DNA from: a virus
Taxonomy: Duplodnaviria > Heunggongvirae > Uroviricota > Caudoviricetes
Reading direction: 5' to 3' (one strand)
Length of the DNA: 25,078 nucleotides
Virus record (IMG/VR): IMGVR_UViG_2671180547_000002
Shown: positions 1 through 7,700 of the stretch, piece after piece
Numbering within the stretch: the first letter of the stretch is position 1
Layout: each line of letters starts with the position of its first letter
Notes under the pieces: generated by a model
The model's database searches: none
Told to the model about the DNA's origin: nothing
The model's input: the letters and a program-made list of their open reading frames with translations, nothing else
Position numbers and translations under genes: made by a program

Positions 1-83
1 AGGGACAGCTGATAGAAACAGAAGCCACTGGAGCACCTCAAAAACACCATCATACACTAAATCAGTAAGTTGGCAGCATCACC
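1..83 (-). mobile_element. IS1: IS1 terminal fragment: left end with terminal inverted repeat and the start of insA, element continues off the left edge
   Basis: Reverse complement of 1..83 reads GGTGATGCTGCCAACTTACTGAT...CCAGTGGCTTCTGTTTCTATCAGCTGTCCCT, which I recall as the IS1 left end (also present in Tn9-derived vectors); the inverted repeat is at 61..83 and the insA start (GTG, translating ASVSISCP) at about 26..28 on the minus strand. Confidence 0.75.
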
Positions 84-402
84 AGCCTTCTTGAGGCTAC
101 CACCTGTTTTCAGGTGTCATTCAGACGTGATTTGCCCCAGATTGGGAAAGCACGCTTTTTTCTCAGCTATCGTCCTCTTATTTTGCCGTTACATTTCTTT
201 TTGCATTCTAATGATTAATTTACAATAATAATATCGGTAATTATTGAGTAATAATAAATTAATTATTGCAAATGTAATTTAATTCCATCTTCGCGTTATA
301 TTCCAATCTTTAATCTCCGCATGGAACAAGTTGCATGCGTGACTATATTAAGACGACTTATAACCACCAAAACATTTGCTTTGCAAGCAAAAACAGTGAC
401 CA

Positions 403-431
403 TTGACTCTAAGAAAATTCCGATCTATTGT
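403..431 (+). promoter_or_regulatory. Candidate sigma70 promoter in the AT-rich island
   Basis: TTGACT at 403..408, a 17-bp spacer, then TATTGT at 426..431; the whole region is AT-rich so chance matches are likely. Confidence 0.25.
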
Positions 432-465
432 TAGGGTCATCAAAGTTACTTAACAGTATTCCGAA

Positions 466-567
466 ATGAAAATACAAAGCAAGCTAATTGTCTTATTAAA
501 CATTATTATTGCATTTATATTATTTGAGCTTTTAGCTCAAAAATTTGGTTTGAGTACATTATTTTAA
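466..567 (+). CDS. Hypothetical small hydrophobic peptide (33 aa)
   Basis: ATG at 466 to TAA at 565..567 encodes MKIQSKLIVLLNIIIAFILFELLAQKFGLSTLF; it sits between the candidate promoter and the terminator at 717..750 but has no clear Shine-Dalgarno. Confidence 0.2.
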   Translation: MKIQSKLIVLLNIIIAFILFELLAQKFGLSTLF

Positions 568-716
568 AGCAAGATAAACAATATCGGGCACTCTAGTTTT
601 TATAATTAACAATTAAACGTCCATAAAATGTTATTTACTTTTCTTCGCTATTGTCATATCTTAATATAGTGGCTTACGCCACTCTACTTTCATCACATTT
701 TGTACGTTTATGTACT

Positions 717-750
717 CGCCATGAAGCTCTTTCATGGCGATTTTTTATTC
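717..750 (+). terminator. Rho-independent terminator, plus strand
   Basis: Perfect 9-bp stem CGCCATGAA (717..725) / TTCATGGCG (731..739) with loop GCTCT, followed by ATTTTTTATTC; on the minus strand the hairpin is not followed by a U-tract. Confidence 0.5.
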
Positions 751-832
751 TTAATCCAAGAACATACTCCCTACCTATAGCAAAATCACTTTTTTAACAA
801 AAGAATAACGTATTTAGGTAATCATTACGAAT

Positions 833-1414
833 TTACCCTATAGGTGCTACTGGCCATTCAATATCCGGTGCAGTTGATGTATCAACACGGTTCAGCAACA
901 CCCGATACTTTTTCCAAGCTTCCAGCAACAAGGTTTCTTTCTCCGTTGCGATCTCCAGATCCACAGCATCCTGAAGCGGCGCTATATGCTCACTGGCTAC
1001 CTGCATCAGGCTGTTTTTTGTTTCTTCCGCCTCCCGGATCCGGAACAGTTTTTCTGCTTCCGTATCCTTCACCCAGGCTGTGCCGTTCCACTTCTGAAAC
1101 TCCCCTTCCGGGGATAACCAGGTGACATTTTCCGGTAATGAGCCGAGTTCAGAAATAAATAACGCGTCGCCGGAAGCCACGTCATAAACCGTTTTACCCC
1201 GATGATCTTCAACGAGATGCCACGATGACTCATCACTGTTGAAAACAGCCACGAAACCAGCCGGAATATCTGGCGGTGCAATATCGGTACTGTTTGCAGG
1301 CAGACCTGTATGAGGCGGAATATATGCGTCACCTTCACCAATAAATTCATTAGTTCCGGCCAGCAGGTTATAAATTTTTATGGTCCGTGCTTGTTCACTC
1401 ATTCTGAATGCCAT
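833..1414 (-). CDS. tfa: Tail fiber assembly protein Tfa
   Basis: 193-aa ORF beginning [44 protein letters not shown], near-identical to lambda Tfa; its ATG shares one base with the stf stop (TAATG). Confidence 0.93.
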
Positions 1415-4400
1415 TATGCGAGCCTCACAATATAGTTAAATGCGATGTTTTTGACGGTGTTTTCCGCGTTACCAGCAGCGTTAACGGTGATGGTGTGTCC
1501 ATGTGAACCAATCGCAACAGAGTGCGTATGAGCACCAATACCGACAGTATGCGCGTGTGCACCCGCAGATGCTGCTGTGCCGGACAGTGAGTGTGTATGG
1601 TTTCCTTCTGAAGATGATTTACCTACCCATTGGGAGGTGCCACTGGTTAATGAGCCACTGATACCAACCTGATTAGTCCCGCTAACTTGAGTACTCCCTG
1701 CCGGAAACATTCCAGTAGGTTGACTCCCGCTATTCGTTCTGGGCCCAGTCTGACTATGTTGGTGGGCCCCAGCTGAACTTGTAGAGCCGCTCAGACTGTG
1801 CGTATGCGCCCCGGTGTTATTCGTGGATTTAGTGCCGTAATCAAACGACGATGTGGTTTTCGTCCCCAAATCCGTACTGGATGCGCTGGCGCTGTGGGTG
1901 TGCGATTTAATGCCATCCTGTTCCTGAGACAATACGGCACGACCACTGGCGGGCTTGCCCTTAATCGTCCAGCCACGCATATCAGGGATCACGCCTGACG
2001 GATAAGCGGCTGCAAGTTTCGGGTAAGCAGATTTGTCAAAAGTCTGCCCCTGCATCAGGGCATAACCAGACGGAACGGTATCTGATGGCCACGGGATTGG
2101 TGCACCGACTGGATAAAACTCTGCAGGAGGATGAGCCGAGGTGTAAAGCTGCGCCCACGGCGACCAGTTTGCGTCGGTCGTATCCCGTCGTGAACGAATA
2201 AATGCCGGAGCATGAGCACCGCTTGTACCACTCCAGCCGATGAGTAACTCACCTTCGCCAACGGCTGTCATCCCTTTCAGGTGAATGATATTTCCATACG
2301 CTGTTGGATATCCGTTGTTATACACCTCGTATAACTCAAGACCTGCTGCCCCCTGCGTATTGTCTGTCAGCGCGGCTACCCGACCTTTTGAAGCCAGATT
2401 AACTGATGATACTGCTGTTCCACCTGACGGTAGCGCCCCGATCTCTGATGCCGTTGGCTTATTTCTGGAGTTATAGTCCCTTCGCCAGCCAGGTGAATAA
2501 TCTGTTCCGTGATTAATATAGGTAAACTGGGCGTTGGTTGTTCCGCCACCGCTGGATGTGGTCGGAGTGGTAATGCGGATCGTCATCGCTGACTTTATCC
2601 CCATTACTTCAATGACAGCTCCGGCGAGATGAATATTACCGCAGCCAGTATCAGTAATGATTTTATTATTGCCATAAGACCAGGAACCCTTGCACATCCA
2701 GTATGGATGGTTAAATGCTCCCTGAGAATCCAGCCACTCGATAAACTGTGCAGTCGTCCAGTTTCCTGTTGTTGTGCTTACTGACCCACCGAAGGCACGG
2801 CAGGCACCAATATTTTTCGTAAAGGTGTCTTTGCCAGGGATATCCGCACCGTTCTGATCTTTCTGCAGACGTTTCTCAGCATTGTCATTGGCTGCTTTTA
2901 CTGCCTTTGGCGTTGCCGCCAGCGTTTCAGACGTGCTGTTGGTCGCGCTGCTTAGCTGGATTATCCCTTTCTGTGCTGTCGTTGCATCCTGTGCGGTGTA
3001 TTTCCCGTTAGCCAGGTCATACGCGGCCTTAACGGCTTTTGGTGTTGCCGCCAGTGACTCGGAAGTGCTGTTAGTCGCACTACTGAGCTGTACTATCCCC
3101 TTTTTCGTCGTGCTCGCATCCTCAAGCGCCACGGCGGATGCAATATCCTCTGCCCGTTTTGCCGCTGTCTCAGCGCGCGTTGCTGCAGATTCCGCCGTAC
3201 TTTTGCTCTGAGCTGCTGCCGTCGCACTACCAGCAGCCTCTGTCGCCTTCGTGGATGCCGTCGTGGCGCTGCCCTTCGCTGCTGACGCCTGTCTGGTCGC
3301 CTCATCTTTTGAAGCAGACGCCGATGATGCCGATGACGCCGCCGAACTGGCGGACGATGCGGCAGCCGTTTTTGAGGATTCTGCACGGGTTTCCGACGCT
3401 TTCGCGTTCGTTTCGGATGTCTTCGCTGCGGAAGCTGACCTCGCTGCTGCCGTGGCCTGCTCAGTGGCTTCGCCAGCCTTCGTTGTGGCTGTTGAAGCGG
3501 ATGATGCGGCGCTTTCTGCCGATTTTCCGGCGGCGGTGGCACTGGCTGAGGCCTGCCCGGCACTTGTTGACGCGGCGCTGGCAGACGACGCAGCCGCTGT
3601 TTTTGAGCCTGCCGCAGCTGAGGCACTCTGTCCCGCTGCCGTTTCAGAAGACCTGGCGTTCGTCTCGGACGTTTTGGCCGCCTTCGCAGAATTTGCAGCC
3701 GCCGTCGCCGAGGAAGCTGCGCTACTGGCGCTTGATGATGCGTTCGTTTCTGATGATTTTGCCGCCTCTTTTGAAGCCGACGCATCCCGGGCTGAGGTGG
3801 CAGCTTCTGACGCTTTCGTGGTCGCGGTGGATGCAGAAGTGGCTGCTGATTGTTGTGACGCTGCCGCATTCGTTTCTAACGTTTTCGCCGCACCGGCACT
3901 GGTAGCCGCCGCGCTTTTTGAGGACTCTGCAGCGGCAGCACTTTTTGAGGCTTCAGTGGCCTTTGTTGATGCCGTTCCTGCGCTGGAAGACGCTGACTGA
4001 GCCGACGAAGCGGCCTGTCCGGCTGACGTGCTGGCTGCACGTGCTGAATCTGCAGCATCAGTCGCATGGGTTGCCGCCTCACGGGCTGATGTGCTGGCAT
4101 CGCTGGCTGATTTCTTCGCGGCTGCCGTGTTCTGTGCCACCGCGGACGCGTTACGCGCCACCTCTTCCACCATCAGCTCAAAACGGCGCAGTGCCTCCGG
4201 ACGGGCATCATCCTCCGTCATGGCACCGAGAAAATCATTCAGCGTACCGGGTCGGGAATCTTCATACACGGTGATGGTCCCGGCATGTGACGGCGGGAAT
4301 CCTTCCACCAACAGAATAACGCTGTACTGACCGTACTCAACGTCCATGCTGTAACGCCCGGCTTCATCCGGATTTTCTGAGGCCAGCGTGTTCACCACCA

Positions 4401-4497
4401 CCGTGGTGCTGTTACGTTTTGCTTTCAGCTGGATTGTGCAGTTCTGTACCGGTTTTCCTGTGCCGTCTTTCAGTACACCTGAAATCTTTACTGCCAT
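1414..4497 (-). CDS. stf: Side tail fiber protein Stf, long mosaic form (1027 aa)
   Basis: N-terminus [26 protein letters not shown] matches lambda Stf; a long Ala/Ser/Thr-rich low-complexity centre follows, then a C-terminus with repeated His motifs (GAHTHS, GAHQHS, GAHAHT, GSHGHT) ending [18 protein letters not shown]. The ATG at 4495..4497 follows GGGGTG; the track's GTG at 4503 is probably not the start. Confidence 0.9.
2890..3135 (-). repeat. Imperfect tandem duplication (about 120-bp unit) inside stf
   Basis: Two adjacent DNA units encode [27 protein letters not shown] and [27 protein letters not shown]; lambda Stf as I recall it has one copy. Confidence 0.7.
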
Positions 4498-4506
4498 ATT
4501 CACCCC

Positions 4507-4536
4507 ACAAAAAAGCCCGCCTGAACCGGCGGGCTG
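4507..4536 (-). terminator. Rho-independent terminator between lom and stf
   Basis: On the minus strand GCCCGCC-GGTTCA-GGCGGGC (stems at 4515..4521 and 4528..4534) is followed by TTTTTTGTGG, directly upstream of the stf ATG. Confidence 0.6.
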
Positions 4537-4561: not shown

Positions 4562-4656
4562 TCAGAATTTATAACCGACACCCACGATGAAACCGTCAGT
4601 GCGCCAGAGACGTGTTGCTGTGGCGACCGTCATCACTTCCGGTCAGCACATCGTGC
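4562..4656 (-). pseudogene. lom: lom 3' remnant (Ail/Lom/PagC outer-membrane protein family), frameshifted and truncated by a gap
   Basis: Minus-strand translation ends WRTDGFIVGVGYKF-stop, the lambda Lom C-terminus; just upstream, HDVLTGSDDGRHSNTSLA matches lambda Lom in a different frame, implying loss of about 26 codons plus a frameshift. The rest of the gene falls in the N-run 4657..4707. Confidence 0.7.
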
Positions 4657-4707
4657 NNNNNNNNNNNNNNNNNNNNNNNNNNNNNNNNNNNNNNNNNNNN
4701 NNNNNNN
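4657..4707. other. Assembly gap (N-run) within the lom region
   Basis: 51 Ns; at least about 400 nt of lom N-terminal coding sequence would have to lie here, so the true length is unknown. Confidence 0.9.
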
Positions 4708-4728
4708 TTTATTGGGGTTATAAATATT

Positions 4729-7700
4729 TCAACGAATACTGATGCCGGAAGCCGCTTTTTTGGTCACAATCACCGTACAGTCGGTGATATTGCCTGCCCC
4801 CTGATTGCCTTTCTGGAAAATCTTAAACTCCAGAGTGACGCTACCACCACCACTAGGCATATCAATAACTGCACTGTAACTACCGGGAATGGCACCTTTA
4901 GTTTCTCTGGATGCGATTAATACGCCGTTTTTGCGAACTTCAAAACCATAACCCGTGTATCGCGTGCCTCCTGGGTTATTTCCGCTCCCCGGATCGTCAT
5001 ACGCTATACCGTTAAAAATAATGGGCGGAATAATAATCTGGCGGTCAAAGTTATGATCATCGCTTATGGTGACTGTAACCGTCCCGTTTGGTGTTTCCGT
5101 GTTACCCCACGTACCAGCCTGTTTCGGAAATGATTTGGATACAGCTTTAACGAAGTCACCTCTGACCTGAGTCGCCTCCAGCATGCCCTTAATCGTACAG
5201 TTTTCATTTACCGTGACATTGTTGAGCGTCCCGGCGTTCGCATTCACACTGCCACTGATATCCGCATTTTTAGCGGTCAGCTTTCCGTCCGGAGTCAGGG
5301 AAAATGCCGATGGATTTCCACCGCTGGTAATGGTGGGGGCCGTCAGGCGTTTCAGGAACACGTCGTTCATGAATATCTGATCGCCCTGACCAACAAACAT
5401 CGGTTTTGTGTTGCCATTCGCAGGATTAACCATCGCAATCCTGTCCGCCGCCAGCAGCACCTGACTCTGCATGCCGTCAGGGGTGTTCTCAATACCGGCA
5501 CCAATACCCGCGATATAAAGGCGTCCGTCCTGCATCTGCTGCAGCTTCACAGCCCACATGCTGTTCAGGTTATTATTTGTATCAACCTGAACCTTCTGTA
5601 TCTGCTGAATTGCCGCACTCTGGTCTTCCAGTTTCTTATTGACGGTCTGCGTGATTTCATTGCTGACATCCGTAATGGACGTCCTGATTTCAGCCAGGTC
5701 AGGCGCAAGCTGACCGTTATCAATCTGCGTCCACAGCTCCTGAGCCAGATGGGTTTTCCCTATCTCGCCTTTGAAAAAATCCAGATAACCGGATGCATCA
5801 TCACTCGGCTGACCAACAGCCTCCACGAATGCCGATTTGCCAACGGTGTTCACACTGCGGATATAAAAGTAATAATCATGGCCCGGTTTGATATTGATAC
5901 TGGCGGCTATCCAGTACAGCGCCGTGCCAAGATAGCGTGCTGTGGTTTCAACCTGCCTGATATCCGCAATCCGCTTTTCCGAGAACCAGAACTCAAACTG
6001 TACCGTCGGATCATAAACCGCAAGATGCGGCGTGGCGGTTATCTGAAAATAGCCCGGCGTCAGCTCAATCCGCGACAGCGCTGCCGGTGCGGCAATCCGG
6101 AACGATACCGACGCCGGATCGCCCTGCTGCCCCCACGCATTTACTGCCCGGACTGTCAGCCTGTAGTTCCCCAGCGCCAGTTGTGTGAAGCGGTAAGTGG
6201 TTTCCGTCGTCCGGGCCGTGCTGACCAGCCGCTCACTGCCGTCATCCGCTGCCACGGTCAGGCGAAGCATAAAGCTCACCCCCTTCACCACCTTCGGCGT
6301 GTCCCAGCGCGCCAGCACCTGANNNNNNNNNNNNNNNNNNNNNNNNNNNNNNNNNNNNNNNNNNNNNNNNNNNNNNNNNNNNNNNNNNNNNNNNNNNNNN
6401 NNNNNNNNNNNNNNNNNNNNNNNNNNNNNNNNNNNNNNNNNNNNNNNNNNNNNNNNNNNNNNNNNNNNNNNNNNNNNNNNNNNNNNNNNNNNNNNNNNNN
6501 NNNNNNNNNNNNNNNNNNNNNNNNNNNNNNNNNNNNNNNNNNNTCAGGTGCTGCACCGCTGGCGGCGTGACACCATTCACCGTGCCGCTCTGGTCGCCGT
6601 CAAAGTGCGCCCCGTTATCCACGATGGCTTCTTTTTCCGGCACATGCTGCACGGCGGTGATGGCATACGTGCCGTCGTCGTTCTCACGGATACTCACGCA
6701 GCGGAACAGGCGCTGGCGCAACGTCGGCAGCTTCAGCCCCCACACGCTGTATTCAGCAACACCGTCAGGAACACGGCTCACTTTTACCTTCACGCCGTCG
6801 GTGACGGACTGGACCTCCACGCTGACCGGATTCCCCTGCCCGTCAACCAGGCTTATCAGCGTGGTGCCGGAGGATGGCAGCGTGATTTCACGGTCGAGCG
6901 TCAGCGTCCGGGTCTGGCTGTTCACCGCCAGCACGCGCCCGCCGGTGCGGATACCGGCATAGTCATCATCGCAGATTTCAATGACATCGCCCGGTACATG
7001 ACGAAGCCCTTCAGCACCCACGCTGAAATCCACGGTCTGCGTCTCCAGCAGTTCCGTTTTAATCAGCCACAGCCCGGCGCGGTGTGCCTGCCCCCGGCTG
7101 GTACAGCCAAAGGCATCCATCTTCGTGACGTTACGACCGTAACGGACAATGGCCTGCGTATCCTCCACAAGCTCTGTCGCCGTCTCCCAGCCGTTATCCG
7201 GGTCAATCCAGTTCACCTCAACGGCATTATGGCGGTCTTTCAGGGCGCTGAAACTGTAGCGGAACGGCGCGCCATCATCCGGCATCACCACATTACTGCG
7301 GTTATAGGCCCACACCTTATCCGACTGTCGGTCCTGCACGAACGTCAGCGTCTGCCCGTTCCATACCGGCATACAGCGCATCGCCGAGCAGAAATCACTG
7401 AGCACATCCCACGCCTTGCGCTGTGTGGTCAGCCAGGCATTACAGGTGATGCGCGGCTCCGTGCTGCCAAAGCCGTCCGGCACCGACTGGTCACAGTACT
7501 GGCCGATGACATACAGCGCCCATTTATCCACATCTGCCGCACCAAGACGTTTCCCCATGCCATAGCGCGGATGGGTCAGCATATCCCACAGACACCAGGC
7601 CATGTTGTTGCTGTATGCCGGTTTTAACGTTCCGTCCCAGATACCGCTGTATTGCCGCGTCTGCGGATTATAGTTCGACGGCACCTGCAGAATGCGCCCG

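Follow-up and report, generated by a model that had tools for sequence, protein, structure and literature searches.

The window, that is, the whole 25,078-nucleotide stretch of viral DNA analysed here, very probably comes from a lambda-like prophage whose side tail fibre gene, stf, is intact; this gene stands next to the chaperone gene tfa and is built of modules known from other fibres. The architecture is already known from phage mEp460, from E. coli prophages and from a further IMG/VR viral contig (L031), and the gene exemplifies fibre shuffling without being a discovery; that lambda, T4, Mu, P1 and P2 share mosaic tail fibres is textbook knowledge. Our segment comparison with 70 related Stf proteins revealed nine presence/absence patterns of eight segments, and the modules were found rearranged and also present in the P1, P2, Mu, P7, Gifsy-1 and Vibrio phage fibres, which bears out the module shuffling proposed in the first-pass annotation. 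Full-length collinearity with lambda Stf, which that annotation had named as the contrary outcome, was not found, and its mosaic claim stands. This stf allele joins a common shaft-module combination to a rare tip.

The stf gene and its neighbourhood

The gene, its N-terminal domain and its flanking features were placed as follows.

1414..4497, minus strand: stf, side tail fibre gene (from the open reading frame list; ATG at 4497, stop at 1416..1414; 1027 codons plus stop)
4225..4497, minus strand: N-terminal domain predicted to dock the fibre on the tail tip, residues 1-91 (PF08400, E=1.4e-71; 9E7M match; limits from PMC12617516)
833..1414, minus strand: tfa, tail fibre assembly chaperone, 193 aa (PF02413, E=4.6e-44; its ATG overlaps the stf stop, TAATG)
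4514..4535, minus strand: terminator-like hairpin (8-pair stem with 7 GC pairs, and a T-run that ends a few bases short of the stf start codon)

As annotated in the first pass, Stf has 1027 aa against 774 aa for lambda Stf (full-length lambda record KT232076), a difference of 253 aa; a GTG two codons upstream of the ATG is an alternative start that would give 1029 aa. The gene is free of runs of N. Long open reading frames in other frames at 3093-4000, on both strands, were dismissed as a by-product of the rod sequence, which is repetitive, rich in GC (about 0.60) and poor in stops. Pfam reported PF08400, two stretches of PF03406 and PF07484 on Stf. The PF08400 match (residues 1-134, 239 bits versus a cutoff of 26.6) identified a lambda-type N-terminal tail-attachment domain, and chain Ta of PDB 9E7M (deposited as 'Tail fiber protein', 94 aa) matched residues 1-94 with E=1.3e-51; this structure is probably the Ur-lambda Stf N-domain of PMC12617516. 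Both ends of the protein proved lambda-like, as had been claimed. Collinearity with lambda extends over residues 1-303 (87.6% identical DNA across 909 nt; 80.7% by BLASTP over residues 1-352), and residues 795-1027, the His-rich C-terminus, correspond to lambda residues 530-774 with 70.6% protein identity and indels. At the nucleotide level, stf positions 1-909 match lambda 1-909, a 315-nt indel separates these from positions 1214-1471 (lambda 899-1156), and homology resumes at position 2392.

Upstream on the same strand lies a lambda-like late operon with gpA terminase, tape measure (H), M, L, K, I and J. J is separated from stf by the 3' end of lom and by the conserved hairpin, so that stf follows J(-lom) and precedes tfa, and relatives keep the order J-lom-stf-tfa. 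The exact hairpin sequence was present in 75 of the 85 fetched loci, and lambda has a variant of it. Tfa is 93% identical to lambda Tfa and 95% identical to that of mEp460. Beyond tfa, no open reading frame of at least 60 aa was detected in window positions 1-832, a region that is AT-rich and ends in IS1 (IS1 end at 1-82, about 750 nt beyond tfa). Neither a Ser recombinase nor an alternative inverted C-terminal exon, as in the invertase-switched P1 C segment, Mu G segment and e14 P segment, was found here; a Ser recombinase is encoded downstream of tfa in relatives (mEp460, Z1323HEC0016).

These surroundings allow the reading that stf is a relic in a decaying prophage, without present function. 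The IS1 end, a lom-like ORF that appears truncated (160 aa in the identical contig L031 versus 199 aa in relatives) and a J gene interrupted by runs of N mean that the prophage may be defective and the fibre may never be assembled despite its intact ORF; a recombinase gene, present after tfa in mEp460 and Z1323HEC0016, is lacking here, which also favours a relic. Yet the 1027-codon ORF is intact, unlike the stf of laboratory lambda, tfa is intact and coupled to it, and the head and tail genes are complete from terminase to J. A relic is thus unlikely.

The gp37-like tip and the central shaft modules

The C-terminal half of the protein was divided into three tip segments and two shaft modules.

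1762..2115, minus strand: collar domain and first half of the His-rich needle, residues 795-912 (PF07484 at 798-845; 2XGF; HxH motifs 1-3 starting at 866, 898 and 912)
1594..1761, minus strand: hypervariable head/tip segment, residues 913-968 (variation among relatives; breakdown of the 2XGF alignment)
1417..1593, minus strand: returning needle strands and conserved C-terminal end, residues 969-1027 (HxH motifs 4-7 starting at 967, 981, 990 and 999)
2428..2853, minus strand: shaft module A, residues 549-690, a domain of the Mu S/S', P1 Sv' and P2 H type (8JU3 match; Foldseek; tblastn)
2116..2427, minus strand: shaft module B, residues 691-794 (tblastn relatives; no solved relative found)

PDB 2XGF, the T4 gp37 tip, matched Stf residues 794-1027 with E=5.6e-81, and PF07484 (Collar) scored 45.6 bits versus a cutoff of 24; with the HxH motifs, these matches identified a gp37/Stf-type tip. 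Seven HxH motifs were counted in Stf, as in the gp37 chain of 2XGF in the printed alignment and in 52 of 54 relatives, and the motifs suggest that the HxH layers would bind iron and that the tip may bind OmpC or LPS. The 52 aa between motifs 3 and 4 are residues 915-966. Residues 969-1027 are 95-100% identical in most relatives, and in 54 fibres that share this C-terminal end the head segment took 20 distinct sequences of 32-53 aa. It falls where the alignment with T4 gp37 (2XGF) breaks down, and the region that sets T4 gp37 specificity corresponds to it (PMC9659904). Among the 70 relatives this head segment was shared with L031 only, and its DNA was identical in 25 of 5426 complete E. coli genomes. 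In 50,697 phage records the best phage isolate showed 73% identity over the last 148 aa, with none better over the tip. One E. coli match carrying the same tip is annotated stfR.

Module A was assigned by both sequence and fold to a solved Mu fibre domain. PDB 8JU3 (Mu tail fibre) matched Stf residues 539-723 (phmmer E=1.4e-69), and the AF2 model of the module (pLDDT 80-91) gave a Foldseek E value of 2.5e-20 to 8JU3, the sole match below 1e-3. Its tblastn identities were 82% (P1), 81% (P2), 73% (Mu) and 50% (KVP40 gp37). For module B, tblastn found relatives in Goslar (76%), P1 S (72%), P7 S (69%), Gifsy-1 Stf (61%) and Vibrio phages (48%), and a protein-database search with the module alone returned short fragments only. 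Its AF2 model (residues 537-800 modelled) had a pLDDT below 50 and no confident fold, and comparison with the second Mu S' domain gave BLASTP E values of 0.8-8 over 27 residues and an hhalign probability of 38% over 32 residues. In other fibres module B lies upstream of module A, and both occur in other orders and partnerships. PF21446 (Gp34_trimer) was rejected for the central segment, at 18.4 bits below a cutoff of 27, and precomputed PF21446 labels were taken as weak hints.

The first-pass annotation had described an inserted segment of about 250 residues (NIGACRAF...LLIGWSG). The segment is present and has no counterpart in lambda Stf; however, about 306 aa here replace about 146 aa of lambda (residues about 387-532), namely the hinge and the distal coiled coil, and the event is a cassette replacement rather than an insertion into collinear lambda sequence.

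Which part of the fibre sets host range was weighed between these elements. If the central shaft modules (residues 549-794) and not the tip changed host range, for instance by lateral binding of sugar or O-antigen, it would fit that P1 and P7 hold both modules within the invertible C segment, which switches host range, and that module B occurs in Gifsy-1 Stf, itself a binder of an LPS core sugar. Nevertheless, fibres with unrelated tips share modules A and B at 97-100% identity, both modules are found in phages of Escherichia, Yersinia, Salmonella and Vibrio, as expected of structural spacers, and module A aligns to residues 178-362 of the 488-residue 8JU3 chain, away from its C-terminal end. 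Variation is concentrated instead in the head segment, the specificity region of T4 gp37. A role of the shaft modules in host range is therefore quite unlikely, and on this analysis the head segment appears the likelier specificity determinant. The earlier expectation that the mosaic would change host range is plausible as such, but it had been assigned to the wrong part, since the hypervariable element is residues 915-966 and the central modules are common to fibres with different tips and hosts. We tentatively suggest that the rare 52-residue head (915-966) recognises a receptor, or a variant of OmpC or LPS, that characterised fibres of the lambda and T4 types do not use, and, separately, that length variation of rod and repeats, which proceeds mostly by complete heptads and by entire 44-residue units, is selected tuning of side-fibre reach; both are possible rather than probable. 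Such tuning may act relative to the central fibre, e.g., on cells with O-antigen or capsule of different thickness. A literature search on the receptors of the mEp460 or PhiR fibres, and for the primary paper on 8JU3, found nothing relevant.

Rod, fibre repeats and the origin of the long form

Four features make up the region between the N-terminal domain and the shaft modules.

3115..4185, minus strand: proximal alpha-helical coiled-coil rod, residues 105-461, 51 heptads (xAxxSAx) in one phase (periodicity, AF2, lambda homology)
3274..3588, minus strand: 105 aa (15 heptads) absent from lambda Stf, residues 304-408 (single gap in the global alignment; 315-nt in-frame indel)
2992..3114, minus strand: Phage_fiber_2 repeat copy 1, residues 462-502 (best PF03406 stretch; collinear with the single lambda copy)
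2860..2982, minus strand: Phage_fiber_2 repeat copy 2, residues 506-546 (second PF03406 stretch, 44 residues downstream of copy 1; limits derived from the 44-residue offset, not from Pfam output)

The Ala/Ser/Thr-rich tract had been described as low-complexity, a description that we discard: it is strictly heptad-periodic, with 51 unbroken heptads. Self-identity peaked at offsets 7, 14, 21 and 28 (0.37-0.41 versus about 0.18 elsewhere in the offset scan), all 46 high-scoring 21-aa windows were in one phase, and Ala occupied heptad position 2 in 47 and Ser position 5 in 36 of the 51 heptads. AF2 predicted one continuous helix over residues 98-469 (pLDDT 75.6), and by homology the rod corresponds to residues 102-393 of lambda Stf, and so to the long proximal coiled coil of a lambda-type Stf. 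The tract had also been called expanded. It is indeed 105 aa longer than that of lambda, but the long form was found in 63 of 67 complete Stf ORFs sharing the stf N-terminal domain, a biased sample, its members having been chosen for N-terminal domains with 98% or more identity to the present one, and lambda is the short outlier. Because most of these relatives have the long rod, shortening of the lambda rod by deletion is more likely, and the sequences suggest that the rod was probably not expanded here. At the 315-nt indel, the flanking homologies overlap by 11 nt in lambda.

For the repeats, PF03406 scored 125.4 bits versus a cutoff of 22 in two stretches with a period of 44 residues, the Phage_fiber_2 signature. 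The strongest self-match in Stf was at offset 44, with 23 of 25 residues matching; the shuffled Ala/Ser-biased tract, used as control, gave a best match of 14.4 on average and 17 at most. Self-BLASTP of Stf returned the identity match only, and the repeat was found by the offset-identity scan. Tandem Repeats Finder reported only three short arrays, all within the rod, and missed the 132-nt repeat because its copies are too diverged at the DNA level; with only 77% DNA identity over 87 nt, the duplication is therefore old. Copy number ranged from 1 to 4 among relatives, and the Stf of E. coli Z1323HEC0016, otherwise a near-identical allele, lacks exactly one 44-aa unit (residues 470-513). The tandem duplication noted earlier at 2890..3135 (residues 455-536) is thus present, but as two canonical PF03406 repeats of a family with 1-4 copies and not as a special event.

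These data bear on whether this Stf grew from a lambda Stf in three derived steps, in which a low-complexity tract expanded, a motif was duplicated in tandem and 250 residues were inserted. Each of the three differences is real, and the protein exceeds that of lambda by 253 aa. Growth by these events is nonetheless very unlikely, considering the prevalence of the long rod and the more likely deletion in lambda, the diverged repeats of variable copy number, and a central piece that replaces about 146 lambda residues having a structure of their own (hinge and distal coiled coil). We instead read the gene as one allele of an stf family that varies in four separate ways: the rod has indels that keep the heptad phase, the 44-residue repeat is gained or lost as a unit, shaft cassettes are exchanged, and the tip head is replaced.

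Matches covering at least 80% of stf were found in 636 of 5426 complete E. coli genomes, the best of them 97-98% identical over the gene, and a genome held a median of 3 matching places. Stf of contig L031 was 100% identical, with 4621 nt of identical DNA. It is extremely unlikely that the mosaic is an assembly chimera of misjoined reads from repeat-sharing fibre genes, as the N runs (window positions 4657-4707 and 6323-6543), whose lengths differ from those of the otherwise identical L031 and imply a gapped or masked source assembly, and the multiple stf-matching places per genome might suggest, since the entire N-free ORF is collinear at 94-95% with sequenced mEp460 and finished E. coli chromosomes, finished genomes with the same architecture and tip differ by one repeat unit only, and L031 carries the identical DNA.

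The product would be a homotrimeric fibre with domains in series, the structure predictions being of the monomer only. As expected of a lambda-type Stf, each virion would carry four such fibres, which would speed up adsorption. Residues 1-91 would clamp onto the tail-tip junction and be followed by a short linker, and residues 105-461, a 357-residue uninterrupted heptad coiled coil, would form a rod of roughly 53 nm (taking about 0.15 nm for each residue), exceeding that of lambda by about 16 nm. Two 44-residue Phage_fiber_2 repeats and two beta-rich shaft modules of the Mu/P1/P2 fibre kind would come next, the second repeat and both modules standing where lambda has its hinge and distal coiled coil, and then a collar and needle of the T4 gp37 type with seven presumably metal-binding His-x-His layers. 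At the far end, the 52-residue head segment would contact the cell-surface receptor. Tfa, translationally coupled through the overlapping TAATG, would help to fold the tip.

These assignments provide a domain map for the common long form of Stf, in which every segment but module B is tied to a solved structure (for the rod, the cryo-EM-based lambda map). They also mark natural splice points for engineering lambda-based delivery particles, i.e., the rod end, the repeat units, the module ends and the collar start (...GAPIPWP); the splice motifs expected for chimeric lambda STFs are not given in the Nature 2024 paper on them. Lambda Stf is an atypical, shortened reference, and comparison of lengths with it would flag many normal prophage fibres as "expanded".

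Comparison with known fibres

[quoted passage not shown] It has in common with the present fibre the N-terminal domain, the linker, the first 28 heptads, one fibre repeat, and the collar with the His-rich needle, and lambda also shares the gene order and the upstream hairpin. In contrast, the lambda rod is 15 heptads shorter and is followed by one repeat, not two, its hinge and distal coiled coil (394-525) stand in place of repeat 2 and modules A and B, and its tip has eight HxH motifs and a duplicated SFDYGTK unit versus seven motifs and one unit here, with a different head segment. Laboratory lambda stf is frameshifted (two ORFs in J02459), whereas the 1027-codon ORF here is intact.

The T4 gp37 tip (2XGF) aligns with the last 234 residues, with matching collar and seven HxH motifs and with the final 32 residues nearly identical. 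Within the family of T4/lambda receptor-binding proteins described by Magaziner and Salmond 2022, the divergence falls in the T4 specificity-setting segment, where the head is longer here (query 913-966 versus chain 146-181, 54 versus 36 residues). The chaperone here belongs to the lambda Tfa type (PF02413), and outside the tip the fibre has no relation to gp37.

The fibres of Mu (S/S', 8JU3, 5YVQ), P1/P7 (S/S') and P2 (H) share module A (73-82%) and the fibre repeat, and P1/P7 S share module B (69-72%). These belong to contractile-tailed phages with a different N-terminal attachment domain (PF12571 in database matches), and their C-terminal ends are of other kinds, with PF12604 (gp37_C) in matches ending ...CINGTWYNAGSI; the P1, P7 and Mu fibres are switched by an invertase, which is lacking here.

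The 1120-aa StfR encoded by the E. coli K-12 Rac prophage belongs to this family too. In fibres of 1120 aa from viral contigs, the N-domain is 99-100% and the rod 97% identical to that of this Stf, and the collar and C-terminal end are shared as well, but these fibres have one fibre repeat, and other shaft cassettes instead of modules A and B.

The closest counterparts differ in the head segment (913-968), which was not alignable with that of the mEp460, PhiR and ST70 fibres. Stf of mEp460 (LR597641, VUF53340.1) is collinear end to end at 93.9% identity (1023 versus 1027 aa), and because of this full collinearity the present protein shows nothing unusual. The Stf of an E. coli ST70 prophage (WP_257321671.1) has the same architecture from end to end at 95.1% identity, and phages PhiR68_2, PhiR42_1 and PhiR26_1 likewise combine the N-domain, the 51-heptad rod, two repeats, modules A and B, and a gp37-like tip.

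The stf-tfa unit and its surroundings

The side tail fibre gene, stf, was recovered as one ORF with an ATG start preceded by GGGGTG, and its stop codon overlaps the ATG of a second ORF, the tail fibre assembly chaperone gene tfa, as TAATG. Pfam searches assigned domains to both products, as listed below.

Features of the stf-tfa unit
1414..4497, minus strand: stf, 1027 aa
833..1414, minus strand: tfa, 193 aa
Stf residues 1-134: prophage tail-fibre N-terminal domain (PF08400)
Within Stf: two Phage_fiber_2 repeats (PF03406)
Stf residues 798-845: Collar domain (PF07484)
193-aa protein: lambda-type tail fibre assembly protein (PF02413)

Genes for terminase gpA, the tape measure, M, L, K, I and J lie upstream of stf on the same strand and, together with these domains, indicated that stf-tfa closes a lambda-like late operon. 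A GC-rich hairpin followed by a T-run (window 4514-4535, minus strand) is situated directly 5′ of the stf start codon; this sequence recurred unaltered at 75 of the 85 loci fetched, and lambda carries a variant of it. We take this terminator-like hairpin, between lom and stf, to fall within the presumed late transcription unit.

Downstream of tfa, window 83-832 is AT-rich (GC 0.36) and yielded no ORF of at least 60 aa, whereas phage mEp460 and the E. coli strain Z1323HEC0016 carry a Ser recombinase and E. coli ST70 a GIY-YIG protein downstream of tfa instead. From its terminal sequence, we take window 1-82 to be the end of an IS1 element, and an IS1A/IS1B family transposase is annotated under this end in E. 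coli genomes matching window 1-1413 (98% identity, 100% coverage).

Upstream, the window contains N runs at 4657-4707 (51 bases) and 6323-6543 (221 bases), the latter dividing J into two ORFs. The IMG/VR contig L031, whose Stf protein and 4621 nt of DNA are identical to those here, has 471 nt (6371-6841) and 31 nt (4725-4755) where the otherwise identical window has these runs; thus, the runs do not keep length, and they may represent either assembly gaps or masking. Of a lom-like gene, the window shows just the 3′ end (4562-4656), adjoining an N run. The corresponding ORF in L031 encodes 160 aa and stops early; there, ~517 nt (6420-6936) separate the lom ATG from the canonical stop, versus 600 nt in relatives, so this lom looks truncated by an ~83-nt frame-shifting deletion. 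L031 also carries, upstream of its main J, a second partial copy of the J region (1005-2452, 90-98% identical to window 5197-6834), which suggests that the segment is duplicated or mis-scaffolded there.

The heptad rod

The first-pass annotation had given a length of about 774 aa for lambda Stf, which agrees with the 774 aa of a full-length lambda record, and the differences from lambda that it described were borne out by protein and DNA alignments. In these alignments, Stf residues 1-303 are collinear with lambda Stf (87.6% DNA identity), a lone 105-aa (315-nt) indel lies at residues 304-408, and residues 405-491 are again collinear with lambda 300-386. Residues ~492-797, which stand in place of lambda ~387-532, have no lambda equivalent except for the second repeat copy, while residues 795-1027 align, indels included, with lambda 530-774 (70.6% identity).

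The Ala/Ser/Thr tract (residues 105-461) is a heptad rod. All strong self-matches within it fall at offsets that are multiples of 7 residues, with self-identity of 0.37-0.41 at offsets 7, 14, 21 and 28 and ~0.18 at others. Of the 51 heptads counted from residue 105, 47 have Ala at position 2, 36 have Ser at position 5 and 35 have Ala at position 6, and a single phase was common to all 46 high-scoring 21-residue windows between residues 120 and 455. [quoted passage not shown]

The 105 extra residues equal exactly 15 heptads, so that register is preserved; the predicted fibre is a straight rod that would exceed lambda's by ~16 nm, with the lambda hinge region replaced. Viral contigs supplied 67 complete Stf ORFs, a sample chosen for N-terminal domains close to the window's; in 63 of them rod length equalled that of the window, and lambda was the exception. 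Thus, the description of this tract as expanded probably has the polarity wrong. Further rod indels among relatives measured 7 and 35 residues, with one case each of −3, +4 and +9 (contigs L032, L007 and L072, at window residues ~387, 219 and 183, respectively); the −3 and +4 indels would move the heptad phase as coiled-coil stutters or stammers do. Three ORFs of ~250 aa lie in other frames over the rod-coding region (window 3093-4000, both strands), and we take them to be by-products of a stop-poor, GC-rich (~0.60), repetitive coding sequence.

Repeats and central modules

The duplicated motif was found where the first-pass annotation had placed it, with 23 of 25 residues identical at an offset of 44, and each copy is a canonical PF03406 unit. 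At the DNA level the two share only 77% identity over 87 nt, which argues against a recent duplication. In relatives the unit is present in 1-4 copies, spaced 44 residues apart. Among finished E. coli genomes, the closest allele is that of Z1323HEC0016 (Stf of 983 aa, same tip as the window); it lacks exactly residues 470-513, one whole repeat unit, and is otherwise nearly identical in each segment, with a dozen rod substitutions. Repeat number is therefore still polymorphic within the family.

The ~250-residue segment described as an insert divides into two independently travelling modules, A (549-690) and B (691-794). Module A matched the solved Mu tail fibre 8JU3 (E=1e-69), the sole match that Foldseek recovered with the module A model; the AF2 model of residues 537-800 was confident over this module only. 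By tblastn, module A was detected in P1 Sv′ (82%), P2 H (81%), Mu/D108 S′ (73%) and Vibrio phage KVP40 gp37 (50%), and module B is present in P1/P7 S, Gifsy-1 Stf, Goslar and many Vibrio phages. Several E. coli fibres have B upstream of A, the reverse of the window's order. The lambda residues that the central segment replaces constitute the hinge and distal coiled coil (PMC12617516). Module shuffling is right as a general reading, but the separate events proposed (expansion, duplication and insertion) were mis-described.

The tip and relatives of Stf

The final 234 residues of Stf align to the T4 gp37 tip structure 2XGF (E=6e-81). Stf has seven HxH motifs, as do T4 gp37 in its printed sequence and 52 of 54 relatives; lambda Stf has eight. 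The 52 residues between motifs 3 and 4 (915-966, the tip head segment) are the sole part unshared with near relatives; 54 fibres that share the C-terminal end show 20 distinct sequences of 32-53 residues at this place. It corresponds to the specificity-setting segment of T4 (PMC9659904). A change of host range, previously attributed to the shuffled fibre, is plausible, but its likely determinant is the tip head segment and not the central one. Of 5426 complete E. coli genomes, 25 carry a version of this segment identical to the window's, and none of 50,697 phage records exceeded 73% identity to the window's tip across its final 148 aa.

A match covered at least 80% of stf in 636 of the 5426 genomes, and Stf length in the sampled relatives ranged from ~650 to 1176 aa. 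This stf is a real, intact and well-understood mosaic side tail fibre gene. Its product is collinear from end to end with the Stf of phage mEp460 (93.9%) and with a prophage protein of E. coli ST70 (95.1%).
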